IMG/VR virus record: IMGVR_UViG_3300044732_000643
Location: 6,726-70,725 of that record
Strand: one strand, 5' to 3'
DNA from: a virus
DNA length: 64,000 nt
Below the pieces are notes generated by a model. It had not been told where the DNA came from and did no database searches. It worked only from the letters and a program-made list of their open reading frames with translations. Below are positions 15,943-62,600 of this stretch, piece by piece (position 1 is the stretch's first letter; every line of letters begins with the position of its first letter). The position numbers and the translations under genes are program-made.

Positions 15943-15952
15943 TATTTAAAAG

Positions 15953-16904: not shown

Positions 16905-16934
16905 GAACCCCGGGCAAATGAGCCTGGGGTTTTC
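16905..16934 (+). terminator. Intrinsic terminator
   Basis: GAACCCCGGGC-AAATGA-GCCTGGGGTTT stem followed by T-rich sequence. Confidence 0.8.
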
Positions 16935-16947
16935 TATATTTAGTATA

Positions 16948-16980
16948 TTTGCTTAACTTGATTATTTTTCGTATATTAAA
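16948..16980 (+). promoter_or_regulatory. Putative promoter TTTG-N20-TATATTAAA
   Basis: TTTG 16948-16951, 20-nt spacer, TATATTAAA 16972-16980, directly after the terminator and before ATG 16990. Confidence 0.6.
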
Positions 16981-16989
16981 TAGTATAGA

Positions 16990-19282: not shown

Positions 19283-19283
19283 T

Positions 19284-43700: not shown

Positions 43701-46700
43701 AGATGTATAACAATAAGACTGAGTATTTCAAAGACATGGTGAATAACACCATAGAGCAGAAAGAATACAATGACCTATTACAAGCATTAGCGGATAAAGG
43801 CATCTATGTAGACCTTAATGAGTTTGCAGACTGGATAGAAGACAAAACAAACCTTCCCACTCAGTTTGAAGATGTTGTAAATAAGAGAGTAGTCAAACAA
43901 GGAAGTGTGATGTATCAGCAGTATGCTGAGTTATTCTTGAAGCTAGCAGATATCCAATCTAGAAAACCTGCCGGAAACAAAGCTACTGTAGATGAACAAC
44001 TCAAAGAAGAGTTAGATAAAGCTGAAGAAGAGAAAGCTGGTAAACTAGCTAAAGCTAAGGTTGACTATGATGATAAGCTTAAAGCAGCTATTGGTTATAC
44101 AGAAGCAGAATATGCGGCCCTTAAAAAGGATGAAGCTACACCTGAAGTATCACCTGAATTACAAGAAAGACTTGATACTCTTACTAACTTAAAGGAACGC
44201 TTAGATGACAATGCTGTAAAAACAGATGAAGACATAGACAATCTGTTAGAAACTATAGCAACAGAACTTAAAGATCTTGAGCTATTAGAAGTATACAACA
44301 TAAACGTACTAGCTCTTTCCAAAGACAGAGCTGGAAAGAAAAAAGCCAAAGAATACAATAAAGAAACTCCACAAGAATTCTTTGATGAGAAGACTAAGTC
44401 TGGTGATGTACAAGAAAAGAACAATTTCTATACTGCATACTATGGACGTTATGTAGCAAGCACTCTATTAGCTAAAGAAATCAAAGCTATTCAGGATGAG
44501 ATTGGTGAAACTACACCAGAAGGAGATACTACAGAAGATATAGTAATTAAAGAACAACCAGTTTATATAGAGTATCAAGAGATTGTAGCTAAGATCAATG
44601 CAGACTATGAAAAGATCTTTGCAGAAATTCTTGAGAAGTACAAAGAGAAAGGTGCTAAAGCTACCTCTGTAACTGATGCTAGAACTGGTCAACCAGCTAA
44701 GCCTGCTATTACAGTAGACACACCATGGGACAGTCTTCCTAAAGAACTACAAGATGAACTGCAACCTTTGTTTGATACCTATGCTAAAAAGAGAAAGTAT
44801 GCTGGTGAAGATGCAGCTACTAAAGCAAAAATCAGAGAGAATTGGTTAAAGACTCCTGAAGCTCAAGCTGTAGTAAAAGAATATGCTAATTCTCAAATAG
44901 GTGCTGAAGAAGAAGTAGAGTTTATTCTTGAAGAGGCTCCTACTCTTAGAATGAACAAGCGTACACCAGAAGAACTTTCTGAGTCCACATTTGAACAACT
45001 TCAAATAGATGTAGATGCTCTTCAAATACTTGTAAATAAGAAAACAAGGACTGACCCTAAAACAAACAAAGAGGTAACACTTACAAAAAAAGAAGTAGCT
45101 TTTGCAATTGAAGACCTTAAAAACCTCAGAGGTTACTTAGCCTTTAGAAGATCCATTACTCCTATTAAACCAGAAGCTGAAAGAGTTGCTCAGGTTCTTA
45201 AGAGAAATGTACTTGACCGTCAGGGTGAAGTCACTGTTTATAGAGACAGTGCAGGTAATACAATAGGTAGAAGATTAGAAGGTATTGACTATGAAGATGG
45301 TGAATATGCTGCAAGAGTAACTCAAGAGCTTTATGAAGTTCTTAAAGAGATTAATCCTGACTATGAAGAGTATCTTTATAATGGAATGAAGCCTATAGTA
45401 AATAAACAAACTGGTAGAATTCAATCTAGTCCAATTGATAGTTTGCTTACTGAACTGGATTTATATATTAAAGATGGTGATGAAAAAACTCTAGAGCAAA
45501 AAGTTACTAAGCTTACGGACTTACTGCAGAACTACTATAAGCAAAAAACAATTGACAGATTTGGTAGTGAGAAGAAGTTGCAAATGCTTAGAGAAGTATT
45601 TATTCCTGTACAAAAAGGTAAGAAAAAAGCCACTGGTAAAGAGTTTACAACCGCCAATATCAAAGCTGCTATAAATGAATTAGCTAATATAGGTAGTGCA
45701 ATAGCAGGAACAACAGTAGATAAACTTGGACGTGATTTTTTCATGGGTGAGAAAATTACTAAACCTGCTAACATGTCTCCTGAAGCATTCAAGTCTTTAT
45801 TAGATATCTTAAACCGCTTTGCTAATCAGATACGTGATAACAACATGGTTGTCATTTCTGAGAACATGCTTGTCTTTGATAAAGACTATGTGACTAAAGA
45901 TGGTAAAAAACGTGGTATTGTAGGTGAGATGGACTTACTTGGATTCAAGGTTGATGGTAAGTTTATTATCATTGACATGAAGACGGGTACTACAAATCGT
46001 TGGAAAAACTTTAATCCTAAAGCAGATACTGAGGTAGACTTACTTGCTAAAGGAACTGACAGTAAAGGCATCTCTATCAGCAAAGATATTATTGACTGGA
46101 AGAAAACAGGATTTGATAGCTTTGAGGATGCTGATGAAAGAATGGATGGAATAGAGGGTATTACTATTAAAGAAACTTACGGAGCTTCAAAAAGAGGTGT
46201 GGTTACTGGATTGGTTACAATTGATGGTCCTAATGAATCAAGAGATGTTGAAGTTGTTTTCAATACTGATAAGTATACAGCTAAAGGTTCTCAAGATAGA
46301 TATAGTAAGAGACCAGACTATAGTATTCAACAGACCTTCTATAGGAATGCCTTTAACAATATGTCAGGAGAGATGCCTGAAGGTATCTTCCTACTACCAT
46401 TTGAAGTAGTACTAGATGGAGAGGATGGTTATATCAAGTCACTTAAGCTACCACCAATTGCTGATAAAGAAACAATGCTTATTGAACTTGAGCCAGTAGA
46501 AGAAGTAAACAACTATCTACCACTTAAGACTATGGCACCTGCTGAAGGTGGTGAAGGTACAGCTAAAACAAAGAAAAGTAAAAAGAAAAAGACAACTACT
46601 GATGCTGCAGTAGACATAGAAGCTAGAAGGGCTGAAGGAACAAATGCTAGAGGTACCACTTATAAAGGAGAAACTACTGAAAAAGATGAATTAAAAGTTA

Positions 46701-48736
46701 CTAAATATTCTGAGTTTTCTCCTGATGGAAAAAGAATTACTAAAGGAGGTAGGATAATGACACCTGCTGAATTTATAGAAGAATATGCTATAACTGACCA
46801 AGATCATTTAGAAAATCTTGAAGGAGCCACAGAAATAAGAGTATATGAAGTAAAAGTTGGTAAAAATGGAAAATCAGGAATAGACATAAAAGTCAGTTAT
46901 CCAGATTTGGACCTAGAAATAACTGTTGGGGGACAAGAACTAGCCGCTTTAGGGGAGACTGAAGAGGAAGAACAAGAGCCTACTGATATTGTAGAGTACA
47001 AACCTAAGTCAGCATTGCTCAAAGACAATGTAGGTAAGCAAGTACTCTTTAATGGTATACTTGGTTCACTAGTTACTTTCCCGCATCAAGGTGGTGACTT
47101 TGCTGTTGAAACAGAAAATAGTGTATACCCTATCAATGCTAATAGTGATCAGACTCTTAATGATGGAGGTGTATCAACTGTTAGAGTTAAGGGTAGTGAT
47201 GTCTTTGGTGACCCAGTAGTAGCTGGTCAGATCTATGAAATTGAGTTTGTCAATGAAGGTAAAACAGAAGCCCTAATAAACGGTGTCCCTTATAGAATTT
47301 CTAGAAACACTAAGGGTGGAGTTAAGTCTTTAACTTATAGAGTTAATGATAAAGCTCTTTCTGATATTTCTAAACAAATTAATGATCTTGAAAAAGACCT
47401 TGCTAAGTTAGAAAAACAAGCAGACAAGCTTGCAAAAACAGATCCTGAAAACATTCAAATGACTCCATTGATAACCAAAGCAATGGGTCTTAGAAATAAG
47501 ATTGAGCTTCTTAATGGTAGAAGAGATGATCTGCAGGATACTAACAAAGATGTAAACACAAGAGATAAGAATCTTATTCAAGCTTTACAAAGTATGTCAA
47601 GTACATTTGACAATTCTAAAGGTAAAGATGAGGAAGATGCTGATCTTGAAAAGATGAAACTACTAGAAGGTGAAGTACTACAAGCTATGAATGATATCCT
47701 TGATGAAGGATATCCTGAGAAGTTTGACATGCTTATCTCTGACCCATCATCTTTGAAGAGAGAAGACACAGATAGATTCACAGCTTATGTTCAAAAGGCT
47801 AAAGAAGCATTTGAAACATTGAAAATACAATATGCAGCAGAATCAAAACTTACAACACCAATAGAAAAGGGTGTTGCTCAATTGGGAATTGTGTTAAATT
47901 ATATTAAGAACCTAGAATACACTCAGAATGGAAAAGTCAAGAAGCAACAGCCAGCAGAAACCAAAGAGCTCCAAAGAGAGTTACAAGAAAATGAAGATGA
48001 ATCTATTATTCAGGACGCTATCAGAAGACAACCAGGGGAAGTTCCTGGAGCAAAAGCTGCACCAGGAAGAAAAGCCAAAGATGTAGATGATCTTAAGAAA
48101 GCTGTAACACGTGGACTAACAGGTAAGACTACTCAAGAGTTAAATGACATACTAGATGAAGAGAATGAAGGCATCAGTATTGTAGACATAGAAGAAGCAT
48201 TTGAGAATGCTACAGCTGAAACAATTGATGAGATCTATGCAGATTTCTTAACTCAAATTCAAGATGGACTAATATCAATAGGAGATCCTAATATACTTAC
48301 TGAACTACGTGATAAACGTAAGCTTGAATTAGGGGCCAAAATTGAGAAAAATACTATTGAAGTGGGTACTTATCTTATAGGTAAAAGAGGTAAATTTACA
48401 GAGATAGTAGAGGTAACTAACATCAATGAAGGAGAGTACACTATAGTACCTCTAGGTTCAGAAGAGGAAAAGGTAGTCTCATTGAAAACTTTACAAAAGA
48501 ACTACAAAATGTACAGTGAAAACATGGATGAAGAGCAAGGAGATGTTGATATTACTGATGAAACTGAAGAGTCAGCACAAGAGACGCCAGAAACAATTGC
48601 TGATGTACTTAATGATGAGACTGTGATAAATAATGCCATTGGGGAAACTAGTAAAATGACTAGAGAAGAACGTAGAGCTCAGATGGCAGAGGAAAATAAA
48701 AAATGTAAATTAAAAGGTTCTCAAGATGGCTTGTAA
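40784..48736 (+). CDS. Giant ejected virion protein with Gly-rich membrane-like segments and a PD-(D/E)xK nuclease domain
   Basis: 2650 aa; AIIGGVIGAAGG...GAIKGLAAV; EGVQENAQ; AGTTVD...GEMDLL...IIDMKTG...YSIQQTFY (45690-46420). Confidence 0.75.
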   Translation: MAENQTPEPEDISGGAQMINQGSTDIDNFLPFGGKNPMGNVTPVYKSSPLRQAYPEVKSLDNSTYPIKDNITGLAPYTNKPNQTGLMSAKEKANADFASINKSLQSFEDNNAYAKIQAYDSSAAGAHRARYKAYGQETFDRIGFNPEINNEALFNAGTTGLDDTARWLTSAAWPLFSRGFIANPKSYGGIFTGDFGQDIEEAKAYEEYNAIGYSSKGGIGSFITNTLNSFSYTAGIILEAITEEAIIGGVIGAAGGPQGAAGGSFVGGAIGAIKGLAAVPKALFQMGRQGATLAANLRRLDEMSEARRLYNEASKTVGNFFNPFDNTTNAVSAALNNANNITRLARATNTFGGFYNDVKNINMALSEGRLEGGFVENNTYKEMYDAHYAKFGVAPDDQKQREFRDVARKAGSDATLYNTMLINYSNKLVIPNVMRGGVFRGLAGYTDDIADFGTHSILLNPKKGFELVKNSFVNSLKALKSPGTYGKFAMSYFKRNVTEGVQENAQDVISEYLQKSYIAAYNDPSKANFDYSKAILKTAIGKQFSAQGFETFASGFVMGSLAGPLNALPKYMQIGYNKYYKYAGEYDKYVEGRGQSGKELVDTLNTIYKDPKEFFKHRYFNYGTQSLAAKVADDKTSTSAEYMDQRDAAFITQMQTVLSTGTMKYFVDQIKSYQQMAPKDVEDALGLADGEGVKAIQRVDTIVGRAKRMERRYNYINKKLGKNPIDLNLFDKDSDDYNKAALLHSAWEVGVNAQLFMGESFDRNLERIAAITDTFGQISQFSNIPTSAIMPLLDKQRLANEFELLQSEIKVLEGSGDKASKELNQKKQQLEDLTNFQKALSAVQITVIEKQGIQMRKQELMDSGLPEDQARVESVKRFEEEFDVLATDLINDLKEVTTQYLLNLSGSNVEFTKLMNKLQEEGEIDGIDYAITQLIDLHKLDHENQALVKYINVLQDPVEFAIHVNRNLSWMTEMYNNKTEYFKDMVNNTIEQKEYNDLLQALADKGIYVDLNEFADWIEDKTNLPTQFEDVVNKRVVKQGSVMYQQYAELFLKLADIQSRKPAGNKATVDEQLKEELDKAEEEKAGKLAKAKVDYDDKLKAAIGYTEAEYAALKKDEATPEVSPELQERLDTLTNLKERLDDNAVKTDEDIDNLLETIATELKDLELLEVYNINVLALSKDRAGKKKAKEYNKETPQEFFDEKTKSGDVQEKNNFYTAYYGRYVASTLLAKEIKAIQDEIGETTPEGDTTEDIVIKEQPVYIEYQEIVAKINADYEKIFAEILEKYKEKGAKATSVTDARTGQPAKPAITVDTPWDSLPKELQDELQPLFDTYAKKRKYAGEDAATKAKIRENWLKTPEAQAVVKEYANSQIGAEEEVEFILEEAPTLRMNKRTPEELSESTFEQLQIDVDALQILVNKKTRTDPKTNKEVTLTKKEVAFAIEDLKNLRGYLAFRRSITPIKPEAERVAQVLKRNVLDRQGEVTVYRDSAGNTIGRRLEGIDYEDGEYAARVTQELYEVLKEINPDYEEYLYNGMKPIVNKQTGRIQSSPIDSLLTELDLYIKDGDEKTLEQKVTKLTDLLQNYYKQKTIDRFGSEKKLQMLREVFIPVQKGKKKATGKEFTTANIKAAINELANIGSAIAGTTVDKLGRDFFMGEKITKPANMSPEAFKSLLDILNRFANQIRDNNMVVISENMLVFDKDYVTKDGKKRGIVGEMDLLGFKVDGKFIIIDMKTGTTNRWKNFNPKADTEVDLLAKGTDSKGISISKDIIDWKKTGFDSFEDADERMDGIEGITIKETYGASKRGVVTGLVTIDGPNESRDVEVVFNTDKYTAKGSQDRYSKRPDYSIQQTFYRNAFNNMSGEMPEGIFLLPFEVVLDGEDGYIKSLKLPPIADKETMLIELEPVEEVNNYLPLKTMAPAEGGEGTAKTKKSKKKKTTTDAAVDIEARRAEGTNARGTTYKGETTEKDELKVTKYSEFSPDGKRITKGGRIMTPAEFIEEYAITDQDHLENLEGATEIRVYEVKVGKNGKSGIDIKVSYPDLDLEITVGGQELAALGETEEEEQEPTDIVEYKPKSALLKDNVGKQVLFNGILGSLVTFPHQGGDFAVETENSVYPINANSDQTLNDGGVSTVRVKGSDVFGDPVVAGQIYEIEFVNEGKTEALINGVPYRISRNTKGGVKSLTYRVNDKALSDISKQINDLEKDLAKLEKQADKLAKTDPENIQMTPLITKAMGLRNKIELLNGRRDDLQDTNKDVNTRDKNLIQALQSMSSTFDNSKGKDEEDADLEKMKLLEGEVLQAMNDILDEGYPEKFDMLISDPSSLKREDTDRFTAYVQKAKEAFETLKIQYAAESKLTTPIEKGVAQLGIVLNYIKNLEYTQNGKVKKQQPAETKELQRELQENEDESIIQDAIRRQPGEVPGAKAAPGRKAKDVDDLKKAVTRGLTGKTTQELNDILDEENEGISIVDIEEAFENATAETIDEIYADFLTQIQDGLISIGDPNILTELRDKRKLELGAKIEKNTIEVGTYLIGKRGKFTEIVEVTNINEGEYTIVPLGSEEEKVVSLKTLQKNYKMYSENMDEEQGDVDITDETEESAQETPETIADVLNDETVINNAIGETSKMTREERRAQMAEENKKCKLKGSQDGL

Positions 48737-51700
48737 AATAACTGAAAAGCAGGTACTCAATATATATACTGATATCTATGAGGAATTAAAAGTAGGAATG
48801 GACAACCCGTCTGTCCCTGCTTTTGACATATCATCATACATGAAAGATCTTTATGATGATATGGTAGACACTTCTGACCCAGATTCAGTACAGAAAACAA
48901 TACTTACTATACAAGCTGTTCCTGATATCTATCTACAGGTAGCTTTAAGAGAGGATGTTAAAAGTTATATTCTTAAGACTCGTAAATTAAAGGAGTCCCA
49001 TATGGATATCATGCAGATGTCTAAGGATTTTGAAGATACCAATACAGTATCCAAATTTCTTACAACAGCTAAGGTATCTAAGAAATATGTAGAGGCTGCC
49101 ATCAAGGTTTCCAATATGGCTAAAGGTCGTATGAAGGTTATTAATGACATTGCCATGATCATTAATGAAGTATTGATGTGGAGTGCCGCAACTGGTAGAA
49201 GAAAACCTATATCTGCATGGACACTTACTGGTCAAGAGTTTATTCCTATCAATCCAGAAGGTGCTACAGATGAAGAGAGAAATGCTATAATTGATGAGTC
49301 TCAAGTGATGGCTTATAAAGTTATCCGTGAGATTGTTGCTGCTGTACAAAGCGGTACATCAAAAGGTGATGAAGTACTTTACCGTGGTATTCCTATAATG
49401 ATTCAAGCTATTCCAAGTGAGGATATTGACATCCAATACTTTGATGACTCTACTCAAAAGAACTATGCTGAGAATAAGATTATTAATGGTGTTCCCTTTA
49501 GAAGATTACATGCTGAGGGTGTTAATGCTGTAATGTCTGATACTGAAGGTAATATACTTTACTTTGATGAAGAGGGTAATATTACTGACCAAGAGTCAGG
49601 AGGAAGACCAGTACTTCAAGGATTTAGAAAAGTTACTGTAGATAAGAAAACAGGAAAGCTTCTGTTAACTAACAAAGATAATTATGCCACAGTACTTGTG
49701 TCTCCTAAAGAGATTGCTGACAGGGCCAAAGCAGACGCTGAAGCTAAAGGTATTGAATTTACTCAATCTCAGTATGACTATATAGTAAAAAGGCAAGAAG
49801 AAAGAATAGAAAAGGAAGTGAATGATCTCTATCTTCTTAGAGAAAAAACTCTAAGCCGTACAGGTGAACCTATACTACTACCTATTACAGGAGGAACCTT
49901 TGGTATTGTTGAGGCTAAATTTATAGATATGTCAGAGACTTCAATTAAGTCAGAAGACATAGGTGAAATGCATACAGATAATATCAAGGGTGAAGGTGCG
50001 GGTTTGACTTACATTACTTTAAAGAATGGGAATCCTTCTGACCGTGTATATCTGCAAAGAGCAAACATGCCTGAAGATCTTATTGATAAGATTGTGAATG
50101 TACTTTTTACAGATGCCAAGCTTAAAGGAGGTAAGACATTAAGTGCAAAACAAAGAAGAGACTTTGCTAAGATATTCTTAGGACCAAATCCTACATTAGG
50201 AGCGGGATATAAGGTCACTCCAGTCTATATAAATCTTCCTATAATTGATGGTATAGAAACTTTAGAGATTAGTATAAACGGTATGTATCTAGATCTTGAA
50301 GAAGAAGGTTCAGATGAAATACTAAGAGAAGCTCTTAAGGAACAGATTAAAGGAACAAGAGATACATTCAGTGCACCTTTAAATTACTCTTCAGACTATG
50401 TAAATAAAGATTTCATAGACTATGAGATTAATGGAGATAAGATAACAACAAAAGAAGTTGACTACTTTACTTTTATTAAACCCTTTATTAAAATTCTATA
50501 CACTCAAGAGTCTGCTCCATATATACAAGCCCGCAATGCTTATTTGAGTTATGCTATTCCAACTGATGTTCTTTCTGATATAGAGATAGAAGAGAAGGAA
50601 GAAGAAGCACCGGCAGTGAAAGGTAAGATTACAAAGACTGCTGAAAAGGATACAACAGAAGAGGAAGATGTAACGGAAAACATTGGAAAGATTACTTTCT
50701 CAGAGCACAAGACTGCAGGATATGCTCCAGTAAAGCAAGCTGTAATTGCTATGGCAGACTTAGTGCTAGCATTCAATCCTGCAAATGTTACAGGTGGTTC
50801 TAATACAGTTACACAGAATGCAGTAGATAGCACTGGTAAACCATACTTTCCTCAAACCTTTAGTAAACGTGGTGGGAAGCTTGAATTAACACCAGCTGCT
50901 ATTAATAATCTAGTAATTCAAATTAATGCATCCCCAGGCGGAGTGCTTACTATTACAGGTGGAGATATTACTGCACTAAAAGGTTATACTCAAGATGTAC
51001 TAGATAATTTTATGTACAATACTCTTAAAGCTGTTGTAGAATCTAGTAATCTTAAATTAGAAATTACAAATGTTATTACCACAGGTCAGACAGGTATTGA
51101 AGAAGCTGCTACAAAAGCTGCTGCTAGATTAGGTCTTGAGACTAAAGTAGTAGCACCAAAAGATTGGTGGACTAAAGAAATGTCTAAGCCTGTAAATAAG
51201 TTTGCTAAAGGTAAAAAGGCTGCCCCAGATAGACGTTCAAAGGAAACTAAGTTCAAGGCTAGATTTAAGACTAAAGCAACTCCATCAAAAACTGCAGCTA
51301 AAACGGTTGCTAAAACAAAAGAAGTTCTTTCAGAGGAAGACAGAAAAATATTAAGTGAGAGTGCTATTAATTTCAGTGGCTTTAATAGATCAATGAGTGT
51401 AGCATCTTTCTTTGATAAATACTTTGTTACTGAAGCGGATAAAAAGAGAGCTGACAACTGGTGGAGTAATTCCCCTTTGTCTACAGCAAAAGATAAAGAG
51501 GGTAACCTGCTTATTCCTGTTACTGTAATTACTGAGATACTAAACTCTGATGCATTTGCAACATGGTCACGTGCAGGTATTACATTAAATCAAGCTGATG
51601 GTGGTACATCTGTTGACCTTTATCACGAAGCATGGCATGCATTCTCTCAGTTGTACTTGAGTATAGATGAGAAGACGGCACTATATGAAGCAATGAGAAA

Positions 51701-54700
51701 GTCTCCTAAGTGGGCTAATGCAGAATTCATAGATATAGAAGAAGCAATAGCGGAAGACTTCAGAGACTTCATGCTTGGTAAGACTAAGCCTAAAGGTATC
51801 ATTGGAAGAATCTTTGATAGAATTGCAAGAGCCATAAGATTACTATTTGGTAAGCTTACAAAGAGAGACCTCACTAGACCAAGAGACATAGCTGAAGTAA
51901 AAGGATACTTTGATGCATTGTACAAAGGTGACATCAACCATCTTACTCCGGCTATAGAAAATGTAATGCCTGAGTTCAATGTACTCAACAGATCTAAAGC
52001 TATTGAAGTTATAAAATCTGAAAGTAAAAACTACAGTCCATTTACCATTGATGACTCTAAGAGAGCCGTAGATGCAATGGATAGTATCATGGCGGATGTT
52101 TTCTTAGACTATAACGCGTATTTTAAAACAACAGCTGGTGTTTCAAGAATTTTGAATGATGGTTTAAATAGAGAAAAAACTTATGCAAAAATACTTGAAA
52201 GGCTAATACTTAAAAGAGACATAGCTCAAAGAGAACTCAAAGAACTAGCTTCTGAGAATAGACAAAGTGATACTCCAGATCTAGATACTCAAGCTGTACT
52301 TTCTGATAATGTCTTGCTCTTAAGCAAAATGGTAGACAATTTTGGAGACATAGATATTTCTCTAAAAGGTAAAGAAAAGAAAGGTCTTGTTGCTTACCAT
52401 ATTAATAACACAAGATTTAATGTATTAAAAGATACCTATGTAGAAGTAGATGAAGATGAAGCTGCTATAGATTCTGTAGGTCAGATTATCCCATCTACAG
52501 AAGGTAATACTAAATCATCTAAAGAACTAGCTTCAGAAGATACCCTAATGCTTATCTCAAGTATCTTCAAAGTAGACAAAAATAAAGACGGTACCTTTAC
52601 TAGAGTACAGGATAAACTAGGTTTTGATATCCTTGAGTCTAAAGATATCATGTGGAATAAGCTAGCAAGAACACTTGCCGGTTCACTCACTGATGAGGAA
52701 ATCTATGTTAAGCTGATGGAATATTCAAAAAACTATCCAGAGTTTAACCAACTGATGGAGATGTTACATAATCCTCTATCAAGCGAATCCTATAAAAGTA
52801 CAGCTGAGTTCAATACTACAACAAGATTTTGGCAAGATTTTAAAAAGCCAAGAATCCCATATGTACAATTGAACATTACTAAAAGACAAGTAGCTTCATT
52901 AGAGGAAGGTATCCCTGATAAAACAGAGTTCTCATCTAGTATAGTAAATGCAAACTTTGATGTTTATGCTGTATTCAAAGTATGGTCTGCTAACTTCCAA
53001 CTAGCTGACCCTTCTCCTAATAATTTTATCACCAAGGATAAGTTATCAAACATATTAGACATTGATTTGATTATTTCTGAATTTAGTAAAGGTGATAAAT
53101 TTGATTTTAAAAGATCATTTGAGTTTCTTGAAGCTCTTGGAATTACCTTAGATAGAACAAGTGCTGAGATCAGCGCTATGATGGAAAAGTCTGGTTTTGC
53201 AAAAGTGTATGGAGTAGATTATATCTTCAGCTTGCTCAAGATGATCAACAAAGCTGCTAAGTCAGATGATCTTAAAAAAGTAGCAGCTGCTAAAGAGTTC
53301 AGCCGTAATCCTATTAAGTACTTGATGGATGGTTTACCTGAAGACTTAAGAGAGAGTGCTGAGAATGCAGAGGATGTAAGAACAAGACTAAGAGAATTAG
53401 CTGAGATAAACATTAAGTTCTCTGATAACTATGCTAACTTTAGTGTACTTAGTCCTGAGAGAAACCGTGTTTGGGAACACTTCTTAGACAGTACACTTAC
53501 CCGTACAATGGGTGCCCTAAACAAGGCAAAAAGCTTTAAGTATCTGATTGATGAAGATGAGCAAGAGTTTGATGTAGATGGTGACTTCAGACACATGCGT
53601 TGGTTGAGAGATTCAAACAATCCACATATCAAGCATAGTGTTAATATGAACTCTATCTTCTATATGGATCCAATGAATAGCAAGTTTGGAGAGAGAAGAA
53701 GAGTAAGTGATGAAGGATTTAATGAGCTAGAAGTAATCAACGTAGCGGGTACTCAGGTATTAGAAGAAGGTAGCTTAACTCCAGAAGATGGTGTATCTAC
53801 AAGTTCTGCTGATGCAACTACTAAGTTCCTACAAGAAATGAATACTATGTTGTTACGTGGTGTTCAGGAGTTCATGCGTCACGCATCTAAGTCTATGGCT
53901 CAAGGTATCAGAGCTAGAAAAGTAGACACTGCTAACTTTGATAATCCAGGAAAAGAAACAGACTATCTTTATGTAGACATTGCTGATTTCCGTCCTGCCC
54001 GTAGAGGTGAGGGTGAACTAGAAGCATTTGATATTATCAAAGGTTATGTAGCTGGTGAGCTTGAAAGAATCCAGAGATTTAAAGCTAATCTCAAAGATGA
54101 TAGTATCACAGATACAGAATTGCAGATGAAGAACTGGGCTGGTTACAATAGAAAAGTCAGAAAGAAAGACGGGACTATTGTAATGGCAGGTGAAGTATTT
54201 ACAGCATTTGATGATGTTCTTACTGAAGACACTAAAGAAATGCTTTATGATATAGATGGAGATTTACTTGAGGCTTTAGATGAAAATGATGATCTGTATC
54301 AAGCTTTAAAAAATGATGTAGATAACTATTTTGACAAGCAAACTAAAATCAATCTAGATGTTTTAAGTAAAGCTAGATATGTTGATCCAGCTTTGACTGA
54401 GGTTGCTACACAAGAAGGTTTGACAAGAAAGCAAGTTGATGAAATCTTAATTAAAGCCTATACATACAACTCTTGGATTCATAACTATGAGTCAGTGATT
54501 CTTACTTACGGAGACTTAGCTCAGTATAACCATGAGAAAGAAGAGTTCCATAAGCGTAATGCAGGTATGACAGCTCCAGGAAGAGGTTTTAGAGCTGACC
54601 AAAGAGCAAGAGACTATATCAACAGCTCACTCTTCCCTAGACTTTATGCTCAGAAGAAAGGGTATAACATTAGAAACTATGATGGTAGAATACACACAGC

Positions 54701-57700
54701 TATCATTAAAGAGAAAACGCTTAACTCAATCATGTATGATGAGTACAAAGAAACTCTTTATCAAGATATCTTAACCCGTCTTAAGGATAACAAGACTATT
54801 AAGAACAAAAAAGACTATGCTAAGAAGCTTTCAGAAACTGAAGCTAAGGCATACTTAGGCATGGAAGAAGGTGATGGTCAGGGACATGTTACTCTAGAGT
54901 CTTACCGCATGCTTAAGACTTTGGAGGGTAACTGGACTGATGAACAAGAAGAGCTATATAAAAGAATTGTAAACGGTGATAAGCTATCAGTAGAAGATAT
55001 CATTGAATACTTCCCACCTTATAAGTTACAGTACTTTGGAAACATAGACACAAAAGGTTTGTCTGTTACATCATTCCATAAGTTCTCATTAGCCCCACTT
55101 ATTCCTTCTGTAACAGGATCAGCAAAACTATCTGCGCTACATGACAAGATGATGAAGGACAATGTAGACTATGTAGTCTTTCAGTCAGGTTCTAAAGTAG
55201 GACACATTGCACCAGACGGAAAGGGTGATACTATCTTTGATGAAAATGGTGATCTAATTAAAGACTCTAAGTTTACAGTAAATAAAGTATTCTCTGAGTT
55301 CTTGAAGAATCAGACAGAACTTAACAGTACATATAAAGAGAAGTCTATCTTCTCTACTCAGTTACGTAAGTTGATCCTTGAGGGTCTTTATGAGAGAGGT
55401 GTAATACAGTCTACTGATGAGACTCAGATTACTAGTGATAAAGTAAAGCGCTACATTGATAATGTCTTTGAGTACACTAATATTCTTAAAGTAGAATTAC
55501 TAGAGAAGATTGGTTATGATGAGAAGACCGTAGATGGTAAACTTGTCTATACACCTAGAGATAAAAAGAGCACAGAAAAACTAGCTGAACTTATTCGCCA
55601 GGAACTTGAGAGAGATGACACATTGGGTGACCACTTGATTGAAGGCTTTATAGATGTAACTGAAGATGGTTCATTGAGAAATGACTTATCACTACACCCT
55701 GAAGCACCGAAGATTGAGAAGTTGTTACTATCTGTAATCAACAAGAAAATCATCAAGCAGAAAGTAAAAGGTGAGCCATTGGTTCAGGTATCTGCTGCTA
55801 TGTATGAAGGAGTGTTTGGAAGTCCTATTGCTGATCTTACTAATGCTACAGAAGCACAGAAGAAAAAATACAAAGGGTCTAACTTCCTGCCAACATACCA
55901 TAGAAAAATTATTGACCTTGATGCATTATACAAAAATGCAAGTAAGGAAAGTCTAAAGGCAGCTTTAAAAACTAAAGAAAGGATACAAGAGGAACAGTCA
56001 GCTTATTGGACTCCTACCCATCAACAAGCTCTTAGAGATGAGATACAGTATCTAAAAGATGTCATTGCAGGTAGAAAACCAAAAGTTACTACAACAACAG
56101 ACGGTACTACAGCAGCTATGAAAGTTATGGTTGCCTTACAAGGTGACTTTAACTATCTGTTGAACCTAGAGCATAATGATGGAGAAGAGATTGGTACTAT
56201 TGACCGTCTCAATGAAATGATTAAAGAAGACTCTTGGTTAGATAAAGGTACTAACAGACAAGCAGTAACTATGGCTGCTGTGAGAATTCCAGTACAGGGT
56301 CTTAACTCTATGGAATTTATGGAGGTGTATCACTTCCTTCCACCAGAAGCCGGGAATATTATTATACCACCATCTGAGATTGTTGCTAAATCAGGAGCTG
56401 ACTTTGATATTGATAAGTTGACTACGTTTATGCCCAACATATCTGAGGACGGTACTGTAAAAGGTAGACTACTTAAAAAAGGTAAAACTAAAGAAGAGAG
56501 CATTCAGATTCTAAAAGATGCCGTAGCTGAAGCTAGAAAGAATAAAGAGTCTCACACTGAGATTATCAAAGCTCAGAAAGCTGCATTAGAGAATGAACTC
56601 ATAGAAGACATCAAAAACATTCTTGAGCTTCCACAGAACTACCCTTCATTGATTAGACCAAACGGTACTTATATTCTAAAGCCAATTGCAGATGAGCTTG
56701 CTCAATATGTGATGGAGTATGACCCTTATAAGAACATGTCTTCTGATTCACCAAACTACAAAAACGTAGATGAGAATGGGGTAAAGACAGTTAAAAAGGT
56801 CATTAGTCCTACGCGTGTTCTAGAATCTGGATACAACATATACAAGCATGAGTCTAATGAGATTGGTAAGAAAACCCTTGGTCTTGGAGCTATAGAAAAC
56901 ACATTTAATGTAATCATGAATTCATTAGATGCTAAGATGCCGGCTACATACCTGCAGGGTAAAAGTAAGACACCAAGAAAGATGGAGTTACTCCTTAGAC
57001 ACCACACTACAATTAATAAAGATGGTGATGAAGTAATATCAATAGCTAGTAGATATGATGTAGATAATGTACACAAAGTAGCTGACTTGTTCTCCCAGTC
57101 TATCAATGGATGGGTGGATGTTGAGAAAGATGCATGGATCTTCTTTATCCAAGGAAACTATGAGCTTGCTTCAACAACGCTATACCTAATTAAAGCTGGG
57201 GTACCTGTAAAAGAAGCTATCTTCTTTGTTTCACAACCACTAGTTAGAGAGTATGTAAAAGAACAAAGACAAGGTAATAGTACATTTGCTGAACCACTTG
57301 GTAAAAAATCTGATTCAAAAAGCAATGTAAAGAAGGATGCTGCTTACCGTGTAATGAAAAAAGCATTTGATACTCCTATAACTAGTGATAAATACTATGC
57401 TCAGAGACGTGCTCTTTCAGATAAATACTTTGGAGAAAAAGATAGAAACTTCAATGAGGCAGAAATGTTAGAGCTTATTAAAAATTCTCAAGTGCGTCAG
57501 GGTAAGATTGAAGCTGAATTTTTTGACAAAAACGGAAGAATGCCGTTAGAAGCTGAACTAGAAAAACTAGTAAAAAAGGCTCAGACAGCTGCCAATAAAA
57601 TAAAGTATAGTGGATTATCTCAACTTATGTTCTTGCACTTCCTAGAGATAGAACAACAGATTGAAGGTCTTACAAAATTAAAGATAAACTCAAACCCTGA

Positions 57701-59633
57701 TACAAAAACTGATTCAACGGGTGCTGATGTAGAATTAACTGAGTCTGCAAGAAAAGATCTTGAAGATGATACTAAGATTGACCAAGATTTAAGAACAGCC
57801 TTAAGGTATGACTCGGTAACTAGTGCAATGTATAATAATGATCTTATACTAGCTTTGCTGCAACCTTTGATGCCATTAAGATATCACCCTAATTTATCTG
57901 AATGGATTGTTACAAATCTTAAAATGTTCAAAAGCAATGTAGACAATACTTTTGGGTCAGGGAAAATTGCACAAATGATTGGAACCTTTAGAAATGATCT
58001 AGTGAGTATGCTTCTTCAGAATGCATTGAGAAAGTTTAATCTAGGTCCAGCTTACAAAGGTTACAACACAAGCACAAAAATTCCTGTAAATCTAGTAGAC
58101 AACTTGAAGTTTGGTGCTTATGTAAAGAAAAATGATCAAGGTCAGGACACTCTTTACATTGATGAGATGCAGTTGCGTCAAGACTTTGAGTATGGTTTAT
58201 GGAAAGAAGGTTCTGAGTTTGAGGGTTCATATGAAGATAGAGGCTTATACGCACTAGATTCATCATACTTTAAGTCTAATGGAACTACTAACATAGCAGA
58301 GTATTATGCTTTTGTAGCTGAGAGAGAATACCTGAGATCTATTTACTCTACAGAAGAGATTAGTAAGACTGCTGAATTTAACAGTGAGCTAAGAGGAATA
58401 AAGATTACTAAACCTGAGTTAGATAAAGTTGCTCAAGCAAGATATGCTTATGAGAAGATACTAGCTATGAAGGCCCTGGATAACACTTACAATCCTCATA
58501 AGATGTTTAAAGATCCAGAGAATGCATATGCTGTTAAATTCAAAGAGTTAATGCAAAGAGATGAAGAGGTGTACGGAGGAAAACTTAAAAAAGAATATCC
58601 GGTACTTAGCAGACTAATGCTAGATACTAACTCTACAGAAAGTGTATTTAACTTGTATCTGAATGAGAAGGACTTTACCAACTCTTTGTCTAATCTTTAT
58701 AATAAGAACTTTGCTGACCTTGCTAATCCAGGAGTAGTTAAAGTAGCTGATCCAGAAGAAAACAAATTAATAAGTGATTTCTTCTCAAGAATGCCATTGA
58801 TGTCTTTGATGCAAACTGGACTTAACAAAACTAAGATGAACTTCAATAATGTAGTTCCTTTAGAATTGTATACTGACCTCATGAGAGATCAAGGTGACAT
58901 GTTCATGGATATTCTTGATGATGAAGAAAAAGTTGATACTTTACTAAATAGATTTTTTAATCTGTTTATTAATCAAAACAACATGCTTAATTCAGAGAAG
59001 AGCAGATTTAAAGAGCTTTTCTTTGTAAATGATCTTGAGAATATCCCACGTCCAAAAGAAGCAAGGAAGAAAAAGGAGCCAAGAAGCAACTATATAAAAG
59101 CTACCAATACACCTAATCTTTATATTTATTTAGATTCAGAAGAAGAATATAAGGAGATGGTTGCTAAACATCCAGATATTGTTTTTGTAGCTAACTCACC
59201 AAGAGCTTTGATGACAGATAAAACAAAGATCTTTGAAGGTCAATCAAGACTGAGTAAGATTGATGAGTCAATGACTATACTTTTCCCTACTTCTAATTTA
59301 GCATTAAATGATAACTTTACAGGAGTAAAATCTAAGGCGTTTTTTGCAGTAAAAGGATTGTTTGAGGATGCTATAGAGGAGATACAACATGACTTGTCTA
59401 GAGGTGTTAAGATAGCATTCCCTAAGACTGGATTTGGTGATGTACGCTTGATGCCTAAAGAATTATTTGTATATTTAAGTAAAAGACTCTATGAGGAGTT
59501 TGGATATGTGAATCCGGGTTCTACCATGTATGCAGAAGTTGTAGAGATGATAGCGGAAGAACAAGGTATCAGTGATGCTGAAATAGAGTTTAATTTTGAT
59601 GAGGAGAATAATCCCTTTAAATGTAAGATATAA
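48726..59633 (+). CDS. Virion-packaged single-chain double-psi-barrel RNA polymerase (phi14:2 gp66-like) fused to SLOG-like and zincin domains
   Basis: 3635 aa; VRIP...SGADFDIDKL (DFDID at 56400-56414), DGQG, HKFSLAPL, SGSKVG, STQLRKLI; HEAWH at 51624-51638 with downstream EEAIAEDF; TGQTGIEEAA. Confidence 0.85.
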   Translation: MACKITEKQVLNIYTDIYEELKVGMDNPSVPAFDISSYMKDLYDDMVDTSDPDSVQKTILTIQAVPDIYLQVALREDVKSYILKTRKLKESHMDIMQMSKDFEDTNTVSKFLTTAKVSKKYVEAAIKVSNMAKGRMKVINDIAMIINEVLMWSAATGRRKPISAWTLTGQEFIPINPEGATDEERNAIIDESQVMAYKVIREIVAAVQSGTSKGDEVLYRGIPIMIQAIPSEDIDIQYFDDSTQKNYAENKIINGVPFRRLHAEGVNAVMSDTEGNILYFDEEGNITDQESGGRPVLQGFRKVTVDKKTGKLLLTNKDNYATVLVSPKEIADRAKADAEAKGIEFTQSQYDYIVKRQEERIEKEVNDLYLLREKTLSRTGEPILLPITGGTFGIVEAKFIDMSETSIKSEDIGEMHTDNIKGEGAGLTYITLKNGNPSDRVYLQRANMPEDLIDKIVNVLFTDAKLKGGKTLSAKQRRDFAKIFLGPNPTLGAGYKVTPVYINLPIIDGIETLEISINGMYLDLEEEGSDEILREALKEQIKGTRDTFSAPLNYSSDYVNKDFIDYEINGDKITTKEVDYFTFIKPFIKILYTQESAPYIQARNAYLSYAIPTDVLSDIEIEEKEEEAPAVKGKITKTAEKDTTEEEDVTENIGKITFSEHKTAGYAPVKQAVIAMADLVLAFNPANVTGGSNTVTQNAVDSTGKPYFPQTFSKRGGKLELTPAAINNLVIQINASPGGVLTITGGDITALKGYTQDVLDNFMYNTLKAVVESSNLKLEITNVITTGQTGIEEAATKAAARLGLETKVVAPKDWWTKEMSKPVNKFAKGKKAAPDRRSKETKFKARFKTKATPSKTAAKTVAKTKEVLSEEDRKILSESAINFSGFNRSMSVASFFDKYFVTEADKKRADNWWSNSPLSTAKDKEGNLLIPVTVITEILNSDAFATWSRAGITLNQADGGTSVDLYHEAWHAFSQLYLSIDEKTALYEAMRKSPKWANAEFIDIEEAIAEDFRDFMLGKTKPKGIIGRIFDRIARAIRLLFGKLTKRDLTRPRDIAEVKGYFDALYKGDINHLTPAIENVMPEFNVLNRSKAIEVIKSESKNYSPFTIDDSKRAVDAMDSIMADVFLDYNAYFKTTAGVSRILNDGLNREKTYAKILERLILKRDIAQRELKELASENRQSDTPDLDTQAVLSDNVLLLSKMVDNFGDIDISLKGKEKKGLVAYHINNTRFNVLKDTYVEVDEDEAAIDSVGQIIPSTEGNTKSSKELASEDTLMLISSIFKVDKNKDGTFTRVQDKLGFDILESKDIMWNKLARTLAGSLTDEEIYVKLMEYSKNYPEFNQLMEMLHNPLSSESYKSTAEFNTTTRFWQDFKKPRIPYVQLNITKRQVASLEEGIPDKTEFSSSIVNANFDVYAVFKVWSANFQLADPSPNNFITKDKLSNILDIDLIISEFSKGDKFDFKRSFEFLEALGITLDRTSAEISAMMEKSGFAKVYGVDYIFSLLKMINKAAKSDDLKKVAAAKEFSRNPIKYLMDGLPEDLRESAENAEDVRTRLRELAEINIKFSDNYANFSVLSPERNRVWEHFLDSTLTRTMGALNKAKSFKYLIDEDEQEFDVDGDFRHMRWLRDSNNPHIKHSVNMNSIFYMDPMNSKFGERRRVSDEGFNELEVINVAGTQVLEEGSLTPEDGVSTSSADATTKFLQEMNTMLLRGVQEFMRHASKSMAQGIRARKVDTANFDNPGKETDYLYVDIADFRPARRGEGELEAFDIIKGYVAGELERIQRFKANLKDDSITDTELQMKNWAGYNRKVRKKDGTIVMAGEVFTAFDDVLTEDTKEMLYDIDGDLLEALDENDDLYQALKNDVDNYFDKQTKINLDVLSKARYVDPALTEVATQEGLTRKQVDEILIKAYTYNSWIHNYESVILTYGDLAQYNHEKEEFHKRNAGMTAPGRGFRADQRARDYINSSLFPRLYAQKKGYNIRNYDGRIHTAIIKEKTLNSIMYDEYKETLYQDILTRLKDNKTIKNKKDYAKKLSETEAKAYLGMEEGDGQGHVTLESYRMLKTLEGNWTDEQEELYKRIVNGDKLSVEDIIEYFPPYKLQYFGNIDTKGLSVTSFHKFSLAPLIPSVTGSAKLSALHDKMMKDNVDYVVFQSGSKVGHIAPDGKGDTIFDENGDLIKDSKFTVNKVFSEFLKNQTELNSTYKEKSIFSTQLRKLILEGLYERGVIQSTDETQITSDKVKRYIDNVFEYTNILKVELLEKIGYDEKTVDGKLVYTPRDKKSTEKLAELIRQELERDDTLGDHLIEGFIDVTEDGSLRNDLSLHPEAPKIEKLLLSVINKKIIKQKVKGEPLVQVSAAMYEGVFGSPIADLTNATEAQKKKYKGSNFLPTYHRKIIDLDALYKNASKESLKAALKTKERIQEEQSAYWTPTHQQALRDEIQYLKDVIAGRKPKVTTTTDGTTAAMKVMVALQGDFNYLLNLEHNDGEEIGTIDRLNEMIKEDSWLDKGTNRQAVTMAAVRIPVQGLNSMEFMEVYHFLPPEAGNIIIPPSEIVAKSGADFDIDKLTTFMPNISEDGTVKGRLLKKGKTKEESIQILKDAVAEARKNKESHTEIIKAQKAALENELIEDIKNILELPQNYPSLIRPNGTYILKPIADELAQYVMEYDPYKNMSSDSPNYKNVDENGVKTVKKVISPTRVLESGYNIYKHESNEIGKKTLGLGAIENTFNVIMNSLDAKMPATYLQGKSKTPRKMELLLRHHTTINKDGDEVISIASRYDVDNVHKVADLFSQSINGWVDVEKDAWIFFIQGNYELASTTLYLIKAGVPVKEAIFFVSQPLVREYVKEQRQGNSTFAEPLGKKSDSKSNVKKDAAYRVMKKAFDTPITSDKYYAQRRALSDKYFGEKDRNFNEAEMLELIKNSQVRQGKIEAEFFDKNGRMPLEAELEKLVKKAQTAANKIKYSGLSQLMFLHFLEIEQQIEGLTKLKINSNPDTKTDSTGADVELTESARKDLEDDTKIDQDLRTALRYDSVTSAMYNNDLILALLQPLMPLRYHPNLSEWIVTNLKMFKSNVDNTFGSGKIAQMIGTFRNDLVSMLLQNALRKFNLGPAYKGYNTSTKIPVNLVDNLKFGAYVKKNDQGQDTLYIDEMQLRQDFEYGLWKEGSEFEGSYEDRGLYALDSSYFKSNGTTNIAEYYAFVAEREYLRSIYSTEEISKTAEFNSELRGIKITKPELDKVAQARYAYEKILAMKALDNTYNPHKMFKDPENAYAVKFKELMQRDEEVYGGKLKKEYPVLSRLMLDTNSTESVFNLYLNEKDFTNSLSNLYNKNFADLANPGVVKVADPEENKLISDFFSRMPLMSLMQTGLNKTKMNFNNVVPLELYTDLMRDQGDMFMDILDDEEKVDTLLNRFFNLFINQNNMLNSEKSRFKELFFVNDLENIPRPKEARKKKEPRSNYIKATNTPNLYIYLDSEEEYKEMVAKHPDIVFVANSPRALMTDKTKIFEGQSRLSKIDESMTILFPTSNLALNDNFTGVKSKAFFAVKGLFEDAIEEIQHDLSRGVKIAFPKTGFGDVRLMPKELFVYLSKRLYEEFGYVNPGSTMYAEVVEMIAEEQGISDAEIEFNFDEENNPFKCKI
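59447..59478 (+). promoter_or_regulatory. Possible internal promoter CTTG-N19-TATATTTAA
   Basis: Same motif family, inside the RNAP gene ~155 nt upstream of ATG 59633; could be a codon coincidence (FVYL). Confidence 0.3.
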
Positions 59634-62600
59634 TGGAGTGTAGTAGTAAGATGAACAGCCTTGATATGCTTAAGGCTGAAAACATCATTAGTGACGTAAG
59701 AGTAATTCAAGACTTCCAAAGATTTGATGATGCTAATCTTAGACTAACTGAGTTTGCCAAAAGAACTTATGGTCTAGCACCTACACCAGGTGAACTACTA
59801 TACAGTGTATCTGACAAAAAAGTAAACGGGAATGTTATATATAGAGCTGAACCTAATGAACTGCTCTTCTCAGTATTAGACGGGTTAATTGATGAGCAGG
59901 AGACTAAGTTGCTCATGCAAAAGAGAGAAGCTTCTAATGAAGATGACATAGCTTCTTTTATGAGAGAGGAGCCTAAAGAAGGTGTAAAAGAACTCTTTGA
60001 TAATAATCCAGAACTAGTTACCATAGGTACACAAGAACAATACACTGCTTATCTAAATAGTATCTTTCCTGAAAGCACTGTAAAAGATATTGTTTATCAT
60101 GATGCTTACAATGGGGATATAGTATCTGAAGGATTTCTTAAAGAAAGAATTAATCAAGGTGATGGTTTATTTCTTGGAGATGGGTTTTACTTTTATTTTA
60201 GAAAAAATGTTAGTATAGTAGAACTTAGAGAAGAGTTTCTTGAAGATAAAAATAACATATTAACTGATCCAGATTATTCTAATTGGGAAGAACGTAATTT
60301 TACTGAAGAGCAATGGGAAGAAGCATGGAAAGACTTTAAAAGAAAGTCCCAAGGATATTCTATGTCAAGAAAGTATAGTATACCTGTTATAGTAAACGTA
60401 AAAAAAACATTTAAAAAATACGGAGAGACTTATAATGACATAGTAAAGAAGCTTAAGGAAAAAGATCCAAAATTTATGCCTTCAAGTTATTATAGTGTAG
60501 TTGCAGAAATGTTGGGTGTTGATAGTGATACTTTAAACAGAAACACTAATAGAAAGTATATAGATATTGCAAACAATTTCCCTGTTATTACAAAATCCAT
60601 TTCTGATCTTTTAAATGAAAAATTTGGATATGATAGTGTCAACAATCAACTTGGTAATATTAAAGAGTTATTAGTATTTGAACCTGAGCAAATCCACATA
60701 CTAGGTTCAGAACAAGATATTGAGGGCTTTAGAAGGTTTGTTAATGACCCTACTGGACTTAATGTATTTGAGAATATAGATTTGAGTCAGACTGAATATT
60801 ACGGTGAGAACAATGAGAGCGTGCCAGTTATGGTGGACGGTATCAGAGTTGGGGACATTTCATATGGTCTTAGCGGTAATTATGCTGTAATCAACTTTGC
60901 AAATATACCTGATGAATATAAGAAAAGCGGGGTACTGAAGAACGCTGTGATTGAGCTAGGAGAAACGCTTAAAGCGGATGGCTTAACATTGGTATCTGAT
61001 GCTTTAGATCCACTTACCAACATGGTATGGGCGGAACTTATTATGGATAACCAGGCTCACATCAATGAAGACCTAGTATATGCATATGGTGAAGGTCCCA
61101 TGAATATGGGTGTCAAGAGTGACATGGACATAGAAAGATCAGCTGTACTAGGTACTATCTTTGCTCAGAAATTATCTGAGTCTATGAAGACTCCTTACCA
61201 ACAAATCACCCGGGAGGAAGCTTCTAGGATTCTAAAAAATTCTCCTATCAAATATAATGGTGAGCCAGCATTCTATTATGCCGGTACAGTGTACTTTATA
61301 GAAGGAGGTCTTACATTAGATACAGCACTACATGAATTTTCCCATCCCCTCATAGCTGCAATTAGAAGAGATAACTCTAGGCTATTTGATAACTTGTATG
61401 ACCAACTTATGGGTACAGATGAAGGTCAGATGCTTAAAGAGAAAATGGCTAGACTCTATCCTGAACTACCAGAGGGAAGCGTTCTGTATAAAGAAGAGAT
61501 GCTAGTACATGCATTAAGTAAGAGAGCAACCAACCAAATAAGACAAGAGATTGAAACAGACGGCTTCTCTAGATTTATTAGAAACTTACTGTACGCAATC
61601 AAGCAGGCCCTTAAAGGTATCTTTGGTAGAGTAGATGTTGCTGACATAAATGCTAATACTACACTAGATCAATTAGCACAAAAGGTATTAACCCAAAGCT
61701 TTGAGATTGCTAGTAAGATGACTGATGAGGAGGTAGCCCAGTTTGCCAGAGCAGAGAAAGCCCGTATCAACAAGTTAGATAATACTAGTAAGGACCTTGC
61801 TAAAAATATTAGTGCTGATGCTATGATAGCAATAATCAATGACTTCTTCTTTAGAAATAAAGAGGTGTTAGATGTTGCTAAAAGAGTAAGTAAAAAGAGT
61901 CCTCAGTACAAGGTCTTGGAAAAAGCCATGTTTGAGAATGAAGGTCAGCGTTTGATTAAAGATGTTCAGGCCAGTGTTAGAAAGTTCCAGACCGTACAGA
62001 TATCTGCAAAAAGAAGTAGAGCTCAGATAGTTGATGATACTGTAGATGCAGAAATCAGAAGATTACAGGAGCTCACTTTACAGGCAACAACTGTTGTCTA
62101 TAGCTTCTCAGTTATTAACAATGTTATGGATAACATCTATGACAGTTTGAATGATCTTATTAGAAGTGGTGAGTATACTTCCCGTCAAGGTGAAAAACTC
62201 TTGGCTGTCTTTAATAGTACAGTTACTGCCTATGGTGAGTTGATTAAAGATACAGATGACTTGCTTGTACGTGACTTTGCAATGAAGACAGACAATCCGT
62301 TTGCTCAGATGTTAAGTCAGACAAATACAACTATTCAGAGATCTAAAAATCTAATCACTAAGATTAAGTTTGAGAGAGCTACAGAATTCTACAAAGAGTA
62401 TACTCAGTATATGAATGACTTTGTAAATAAAGAGCTTAAACAGAATCTTGACCAGCTTAGCGCGCGCCTATCAGAAGCTGAGATAGATGACCTCTATGAG
62501 AGAATTGTAAGTAATACAATCACAGATGAGGAAATAAATGCACTTAAAGATAAGAATCTTAGTGCACAAGGAGTTGGTGCTTTTATTGATCACTTTAGAA

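Follow-up and report, generated by a model that had tools for sequence, protein, structure and literature searches.

Paired terminal cysteines in the giant cargo proteins of crassviruses suggest a head-to-tail disulfide chain

Crassviruses are the most abundant phages of the human gut. How some 700 kDa of protein, an RNA polymerase among it, is packed into their particles and injected is an open question, and a 2026 paper on phage N4 calls for structures of such cargo proteins. The question arises in a particular form at one end of IMG/VR virus record IMGVR_UViG_3300044732_000643, a linear record of 70,725 bases with an estimated completeness of 59%. Its final 64 kb (positions 6,726 to 70,725), which we call the window, close with three consecutive genes, A, B and C, for giant proteins whose only cysteines lie at the ends that face one another, B being a virion-type RNA polymerase. 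An earlier note on this DNA had proposed that the C-terminal cysteine of each protein pairs with the N-terminal cysteine of the next. Why would proteins of this size keep cysteines at these places and nowhere else?

Terminal cysteines in the window and its relatives

Gene A (40784..48736, + strand) encodes a protein of 2650 amino acids (aa), the first link of the proposed chain; it has no cysteine (Cys) at its N-end, and its sole Cys is residue 2641, the tenth residue from the C-end (TGT codon at 48704..48706, +). Gene B (48726..59633, +) encodes the middle link, the 3635-aa polymerase, with Cys at residues 3 and 3633 only; the TGT codon of Cys3 (48732..48734, +) overlaps the TAA stop of gene A (48734-48736), and that of Cys3633, the third residue from the C-end, lies at 59622..59624 (+). 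Gene C (59633..64000, +), the last link, is open because the record ends where the window ends, and the 1455 residues that can be read contain Cys3 only (TGT at 59639..59641, +). By direct count, the whole set holds four Cys in 7740 residues, every one at a facing end. At the Cys frequency of the window's large open reading frames (ORFs; 0.76%), about 59 would be expected; the probability of four or fewer is 1.5e-20, and four Cys placed uniformly would all fall within the four 10-residue facing-end zones with a probability of 7e-10. The cysteines had thus been read correctly in the earlier note, and the count that it had proposed as a check reveals no internal Cys in A, B or the readable part of C. 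The sequence contexts that it named, KKCKLKGSQDGL, MACKI, FKCKI and MECSS, are all present in the translations, as are the overlap of 11 nucleotides (nt) between genes A and B and the TAATG junction between B and C.

The start codon of each of the three genes is the first one past an in-frame upstream stop. The public gene call for the window's B (P0001, 3543 aa, 100% identical) begins at Met93, dropping the codons at 48726-49001 and with them Cys3; comparison with relatives shows that it is the longer form, starting with MAC, that is conserved.

A distant homologue of B is gp66, the virion RNA polymerase of Cellulophaga phage phi14:2, matched by tblastn at E 1e-9 and by blastp at E 2e-14 (gp66 943-1242 against B 2035-2356). 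The catalytic motif of crAss-type RNA polymerases, described as DFDxD (bioRxiv 10.1101/2020.03.07.982082), is present in B as DFDID at residues 2559-2563 (56400..56414, +), and B also has a zincin-like HExxH motif, HEAWH, at residues 967-971 (51624..51638, +). The flanking giants are those of a phi14:2-type module. A resembles crAss001 gp47 weakly by blastp (A 1641-1734 against gp47 1714-1803, E 5e-11), although phi14:2 gp67 gave no blastp match to A; residues 1-91 of C match residues 1-100 of phi14:2 gp65 (E 1e-8), an N-end domain; and C has an HExxH motif of its own, HEFSH, at residues 567-571 (61331-61345, +). Profile searches of A, B, C and the upstream giants against PHROGs and Pfam returned almost nothing: B matched phrog_10774, whose function is not known, A had a sub-threshold match to SPT16, and a LysM domain was found in the full-length C of one relative (L015) only. 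A megablast of 47000-61000 against phage records gave no match. From their homology to the phi14:2 and crAss001 proteins, we infer that all three are virion proteins and are injected.

To what extent is the pattern conserved? A database search with B returned 362 proteins at E 0.001 or better, and the results that follow concern the 120 of these that were listed, at 38-100% identity. Together they have 240 Cys in 424,248 residues, with one at residue 3 in 117 and one within the last four residues in all 120; internal Cys number three, one each in P0056, P0093 and P0102. The proteins lacking Cys3 are P0001, which is the window's own protein from Met93, P0052 (starting MTTTALYR) and P0078 (starting VVPFAEHF), and all three look like 5′-truncated gene calls. 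In a 23-sequence alignment of B homologues (A1), C3 and C3633 are invariant, as are H967, E968, A969 and H971 of the HEAWH motif. Several B homologues (P0036, P0044, P0043) have extra domains named kinase (PF06414, PF13671) or tyrosine phosphatase, and the giant polymerase seems to be a carrier for variable injected enzymes. A further 6381-aa protein (L074:7386-26531) has two Cys only, at residue 5 and at its last residue; behind its B part it has a diverged second copy, also polymerase-like, in which residues 5261-5960 match 1870-2647 of a relative's B at 25% identity.

A locus search with the C-end 500 aa of B alone found no relative, and a search with alignment A1 found 79 related IMG/VR loci (29-49% identity, 55 clusters), with flanks of up to 10 kb. 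We scanned their + strand ORFs of at least 400 aa and assigned B by its polymerase motifs. A has a Cys in its last 10 residues in 63/63 loci (42/42 clusters) and in its first 10 in 1/55 (0/36 clusters). B has one in its first seven residues in 67/68 loci (46/47 clusters) and in its last 10 in 72/72 (51/51 clusters). C has one in its first seven in 70/71 loci (49/50 clusters) and in its last 10 in 0/69 (0/48 clusters). Internal Cys amount to 27 in 558,015 residues. The three exceptions each concern an uncertain or broken 5′ end: the A protein of L023 has an N-end Cys, but its upstream start is doubtful; in L078 the 5′ end of B is broken into a 51-aa ORF (MVNC) followed by one of 4107 aa; and in L007 C is broken into a 128-aa ORF (MAC) followed by a Cys-free ORF of 1942 aa. 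The rule is therefore that the first protein has a Cys at its C-end only, the middle protein at both ends, and the last protein at its N-end only.

The residues around the cysteines are far less constant. The likeness among KCKL, ACKI and KCKI to which the earlier note pointed is real within the window, but Lys-rich contexts are confined to its lineage; elsewhere we find PFKC, NNPLKC, SKLC, MACAL, MVCQV and others. Counted backwards from the last residue (-1), the Cys shifts among relatives from -1 to -10 at C-ends, and it shifts from 3 to 7 at N-ends; the spacing of gene junctions ranges from -10 to +29 nt, with the Cys kept throughout.

Cultured phages follow the same rule. The cleanest case is phi14:2, with Cys at -1 in gp67, at 3 and -2 in gp66, at 3 in gp65 and nowhere else; in crAss001 they stand at -3 in gp47, at 5 and -9 in gp50, which has one internal Cys besides, and at 5 in gp49. 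The rule is also obeyed in cr128_1 and DAC15. In crAss001, cr128_1 and DAC15, gene A lies on the opposite strand, and the rule is still kept; translational coupling and gene order, to which the earlier note had given a part, are thus not essential. The conservation of terminal Cys in relatives, another check proposed there, extends from the 120 B homologues and the 79 loci to these cultured phages, and comparison of these sequences indicates that the rule is kept across Crassvirales.

Insertions, a split, fusions and false breaks

If the cysteines at facing ends belong together, changes in the number of proteins should show it. Six of the related loci have a gene inserted between B and C, and in 6/6 the encoded protein has no Cys but two, one being residue 3 and the other the last residue or the one before it. 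In L046, L073, L078, L079 and L080 this protein is 242-261 aa long, with no blastp match outside its own clade and no Pfam family; in L025 it has 396 aa. This 396-aa protein corresponds, at 61% identity, to residues 1-380 of C in L032, where the gene is unsplit, and the 2232-aa protein downstream aligns to the same C from residue 366 on, showing that gene C of L025 has been split. The two new ends have Cys at -2 and at 3, whereas unsplit L032 C has Cys3 only. A free-standing homing endonuclease gene of the GIY-YIG/NUMOD3 type lies within the split (L025:21952-22545; Pfam, 31.3 bits), and Rfam detected no intron there. The downstream piece has also gained an N-terminal P-loop domain (GSGKST).

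Fusions show the reverse. In cr1_1, gp076 (4551 aa) is a fusion of A and B with no N-end Cys and none near the join; the Cys at -4 is kept, and the partner protein gp077 has Cys5. A fusion of A and B is also found in cr108_1 (gp054/gp053), and FpV4 gp32 (4287 aa) is probably another, with a single Cys at -2 and Cys3 in gp33. B and C are fused in CrAssphage LMMB (4070 aa) and in crAss002 gp33 (4245 aa); these proteins have an N-end Cys and no C-end Cys, and the A proteins of both phages have Cys at -2. In all of these fusions the partners are joined in the order that a chain predicts, and only the outer facing Cys is kept.

The break between A and B has also moved. A domain with the motif YHEA(F/W)H lies in A in crAss001 (gp47, residue 2157 of 2341), in B in the window (residue 967), and between both parts in the fused cr1_1 protein; relative to this domain the break differs between crAss001 and the window, and a Cys pair is present at both breaks. 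A false break, by comparison, has none: the DxDxD motif of cr108_1 is interrupted by a group I intron (RF00028, 80 bits, E 1.4e-20; L082:17790-18108), and no Cys pair stands beside it. The cr108_1 record annotates the intron-split RNA polymerase as two hypothetical proteins. In cr4_1 (L083, 7400-26288), the annotated giant genes have 38 and 18 in-frame stops under table 11, so a stop codon is translated as an amino acid in this phage, and its Cys counts are provisional.

A practical rule of annotation would follow, in which true protein ends within the module carry Cys. It exposes wrong starts and introns, as in the public call of the window's B (92 residues late), crAss002 gp33 and the cr108_1 intron.

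A candidate disulfide chain and its rivals

These patterns suggest that A, B and C are probably joined by head-to-tail disulfides inside the virion, a reading that draws on sequence comparison and on the analogy with cyanophage A4 described below. In the mechanism that we propose, A, B and C would be crAss-type cargo, packed in the capsid and injected, and kept free of Cys save for one thiol within a few residues of each facing end. Once the virion has been released, oxidation of these thiols within it would yield two intermolecular disulfides, one between the C-end of A and the N-end of B and the other between the C-end of B and the N-end of C. Three proteins would thereby become a single covalent thread, nearly linear and more than 8000 residues long, and some lineages would add a further link to it. 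The disulfides would act as a post-translational, reversible substitute for the fused polyprotein of other crassviruses; the exclusion of internal Cys would guard against links that are wrong or branched; and the reducing host cytoplasm would separate the proteins after delivery. Cysteines placed 1-10 residues from the chain ends are in keeping with a thread that has to remain almost linear, and the absence of other Cys fits the avoidance of wrong links. The pairing logic of the earlier note, C-end of one protein to N-end of the next, is strongly supported by comparison of ends, insertions, fusions and the split, whereas the bonds in crassviruses, together with their timing, single-file threading, exit order and reductive release, are what we infer from it.

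A broader formulation is possible but more tentative, namely that the injected RNA polymerase machinery of Crassvirales is a redox-cleavable pseudo-polyprotein. Two or three end disulfides would join three or four giants into the thread of more than 8000 residues, which would leave in single file and in fixed order and be cut by the host cytoplasm into its working parts, and evolution would switch each joint freely between a peptide bond (in fusions) and a disulfide (in splits). If true, an end-to-end covalent link would provide a concrete model of stoichiometry (1:1:1), packing, exit order and activation.

Several observations weigh against a disulfide chain. The cytoplasm in which capsids are assembled is reducing, and the gut that many crassviruses inhabit is anoxic, which places the moment of oxidation in doubt. 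The support for the chain consists of sequence comparison and analogy. Internal Cys are tolerated in gut lineages, up to seven in the LMMB fusion of B and C. As annotated, crAss002 gp33 has its first Cys at 35, and it fits only with a start at Met33. Three phages have smaller upstream proteins in which a lone Cys stands at one end and lacks an obvious partner: an 861-aa protein of LMMB (L088:3576-6161, single Cys at -2), crAss002 gp30 (L089:4393-6066, single Cys at -8) and FpV4 gp30 (L090:4054-5850, single Cys at residue 5). These may be further links, or may themselves be partners from outside the chain. The gene A of L022 is in two pieces (1613 and 789 aa) that lack Cys where they meet; with the sister loci L031 and L037 unsplit, a sequence error is the probable cause, but the case is a counter-example if real. 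Codon usage offers little help: TGT prevails at all four sites (69/69 at the N-end of B in a tally of the loci) and TGC occurs at three of the four, but with a TGT:TGC baseline of 108:21 in the window's tail genes this synonymous variation adds little. Lastly, crAss001 virions were analysed both reduced and untreated, and in the available text of that study, supplements aside, no cargo disulfide is reported (PMC10172136). A complex prediction that paired the C-end 200 residues of B with the N-end 200 of C, from alignments A1 and A2 and without controls, scored 0.31 against a mark of 0.32 and counts neither way.

Could the terminal thiols serve some other end? They might attach the proteins to the portal, to the capsid interior or to lone-Cys cargo, provide a redox or packaging signal, or carry some other thiol modification. 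The lone terminal Cys upstream in LMMB, crAss002 and FpV4 make partners beyond A, B and C possible, and further crAss001 virion proteins are described as disulfide-bonded (PMC10172136). Such uses nevertheless leave unexplained why the first member lacks an N-end Cys (present in 1/55 loci) and the last a C-end Cys (0/69), and why Cys are gained and lost in pairs at breaks; we consider them unlikely.

A metal clasp, in which facing thiols are bridged by a zinc, iron or copper ion with no disulfide, is an improbable alternative. One Cys per end could serve as a ligand, and metal sites do occur in the module, as CxxC-type four-Cys clusters in the giants encoded at 24926-27844 and 31709-37297. Two thiols alone make a poor site, however, with no conserved His or Asp beside them, and the A4 precedent is a disulfide. 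A single tetrahedral site of four Cys is ruled out, as the number of Cys is two (in fusions), four, or six (with an extra member) according to lineage.

Pairing could also follow another scheme, with B (and any inserted small protein) closed on itself and A linked to C, or with like ends joined in homodimers (A-A, C-C, B-B). The numbers of N-end and C-end Cys balance under self-closure too. Yet fusions of A and B lose exactly the C-end Cys of A and the N-end Cys of B, and the L025 split gains Cys at its two new ends, a paired loss and gain that makes sense only where the two sides of a break pair with each other. Moreover, a narrow channel could not let a closed loop of 3600 residues through in single file, and the A4 bond is heterotypic, from C-end to N-end. 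This scheme is improbable. These three alternatives, other thiol uses, a metal bridge and other pairings, are less consistent than a head-to-tail disulfide chain with the pairwise gain and loss of Cys and with the A4 precedent.

That the TGT codons are a nucleotide by-product of overlapping, coupled junctions (for example TGTAA) has next to no chance of being correct, despite the overlap of the Cys3 codon of B with the stop of A and the dominance of TGT at all four sites, given that junction spacing and Cys position vary, that TGC is used at three of the four sites, and that crAss001, cr128_1 and DAC15 refute it with a gene A on the opposite strand that forms no junction with B.

Genomic surroundings and known systems

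The window has the context of a crass-like genome, A, B and C being preceded on their own strand by genes for head and tail; all of its large ORFs lie on the + strand. The head gene at 1094-2710 was recognised by a match to phrog_11589, the major head protein (E 7e-31); 3′ of it, within 9942-24926, virion structural PHROGs are matched. The tail and fibre genes of this latter interval are rich in Cys (129 in 4233 residues), in contrast to the cargo block, and a single 608-aa ORF at 12418-14244 has 47; this fits a disulfide-stabilised tail as in crAss001. Giant genes form a block that begins at 24926 and continues up to the window end, and A, B and C are its last three. Directly 5′ of A, a Cys-free protein of 1136 aa (MATYLQGV...; 37361..40771, +) belongs to no Pfam family; the same Cys-free protein precedes A in related loci, and it is probably a further cargo protein outside the chain. 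The two giants with four Cys each are otherwise Cys-free, and their Cys are tightly clustered, at residues 335, 338, 354 and 357 (24926-27844) and at 1240, 1242, 1256 and 1259 (31709-37297). The clusters look like zinc-ribbon-type sites, and Pfam assigned no family to either protein. Thioredoxin-like proteins are encoded in the replication modules of cr108_1 (gp046, L082) and cr128_1 (gp059, L085); these genes may bear on thiol-disulfide handling, and the window's record does not span that part of the genome.

Among the closest known systems are the modules of phi14:2 (gp67-gp66-gp65) and crAss001 (gp47-gp50-gp49), which share with the window a homologous set of proteins, a DFDxD RNA polymerase, zincin-type HExxH neighbours and the same pattern of terminal Cys. 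The window proteins are far larger than those of phi14:2 (2650, 3635 and more than 1455 aa versus 1797, 2180 and 1421). The phi14:2 module proteins were detected in virions by mass spectrometry according to the record notes, and the crAss001 cargo identified by mass spectrometry comprises gp45, gp46, gp47, gp49 and gp50 (PMC10172136). The same study describes virion disulfides in the tail and portal vertex and, in its available text, leaves the cargo without density that could be resolved in the 2023 maps (PMC10172136). The word 'cysteine' does not occur in the available text of that study, nor do 'cysteine' and 'disulfide' in that of the preprint on the phi14:2 polymerase (bioRxiv 10.1101/2020.03.07.982082); within the full-text literature, subscription papers and supplements aside, we found no description of terminal cysteines or cargo disulfides in Crassvirales.

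Other crass-like phages encode fused RNA polymerase polyproteins (bioRxiv 10.1101/2020.03.07.982082). These have the same domain order on one polypeptide, A with B in cr1_1 and B with C in LMMB and crAss002. They are joined by a peptide bond, whereas the joint in the window would be a reversible disulfide.

The Schitoviridae provide a second comparison. Like the proteins of the window, their giant injected virion RNA polymerase and its companions are nearly Cys-free: the ejection proteins N4 gp50 and DEV gp71, gp72 and gp73 have 0.00075% Cys versus 0.865% in the proteomes, a suppression explained by passage through the oxidising periplasm (PMC11445570). According to the text available, however, these proteins have no conserved terminal Cys at all (PMC11445570), whereas crass proteins have exactly one per facing end. 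The window therefore differs from the Schitoviridae type, in which Cys are absent from the ends as well; its internal Cys are absent, but the four terminal ones are conserved.

A further comparison is with the cyanopodophage A4 (Anabaena phage A-4L, Saffermanviridae). In its pre-ejectosome, cryo-electron microscopy resolved a disulfide between gp27 Cys1715 and gp26 Cys5 (PNAS 2025, PMC12002296), so the mechanism, for which the earlier note knew of no description, has a precedent. In the A-4L record the bonded residues are the only Cys of their proteins, at 1715 in ORF27 (1717 aa) and at 5 in ORF26 (1114 aa). The sequence signature is that of the window: the only Cys of a giant A4 ejection protein is third from its C-end, and the product of the next gene has its only Cys near the N-end. 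The A4 link itself runs from C-end to N-end, is intermolecular and lies inside the capsid. A4 differs from crassviruses in having two proteins rather than three or four and no RNA polymerase, and its proteins form an ordered pentameric ring on the portal, whereas the crAss001 maps do not resolve the crass cargo. The available text of the A4 paper presents the bond as stabilising and states no conserved rule (PMC12002296). By blastp, A-4L ORF26-29 had no match at E 0.01 to the crass A, B and C set, window proteins included. The relation to A4 gp26 and gp27 is therefore better described as one in which the crass module would work like A4 than as membership of the same system. A link between the C-end of one ejection protein and the N-end of the next is thus known from one cyanophage structure, and its order-wide form in Crassvirales, as proposed here, is new.

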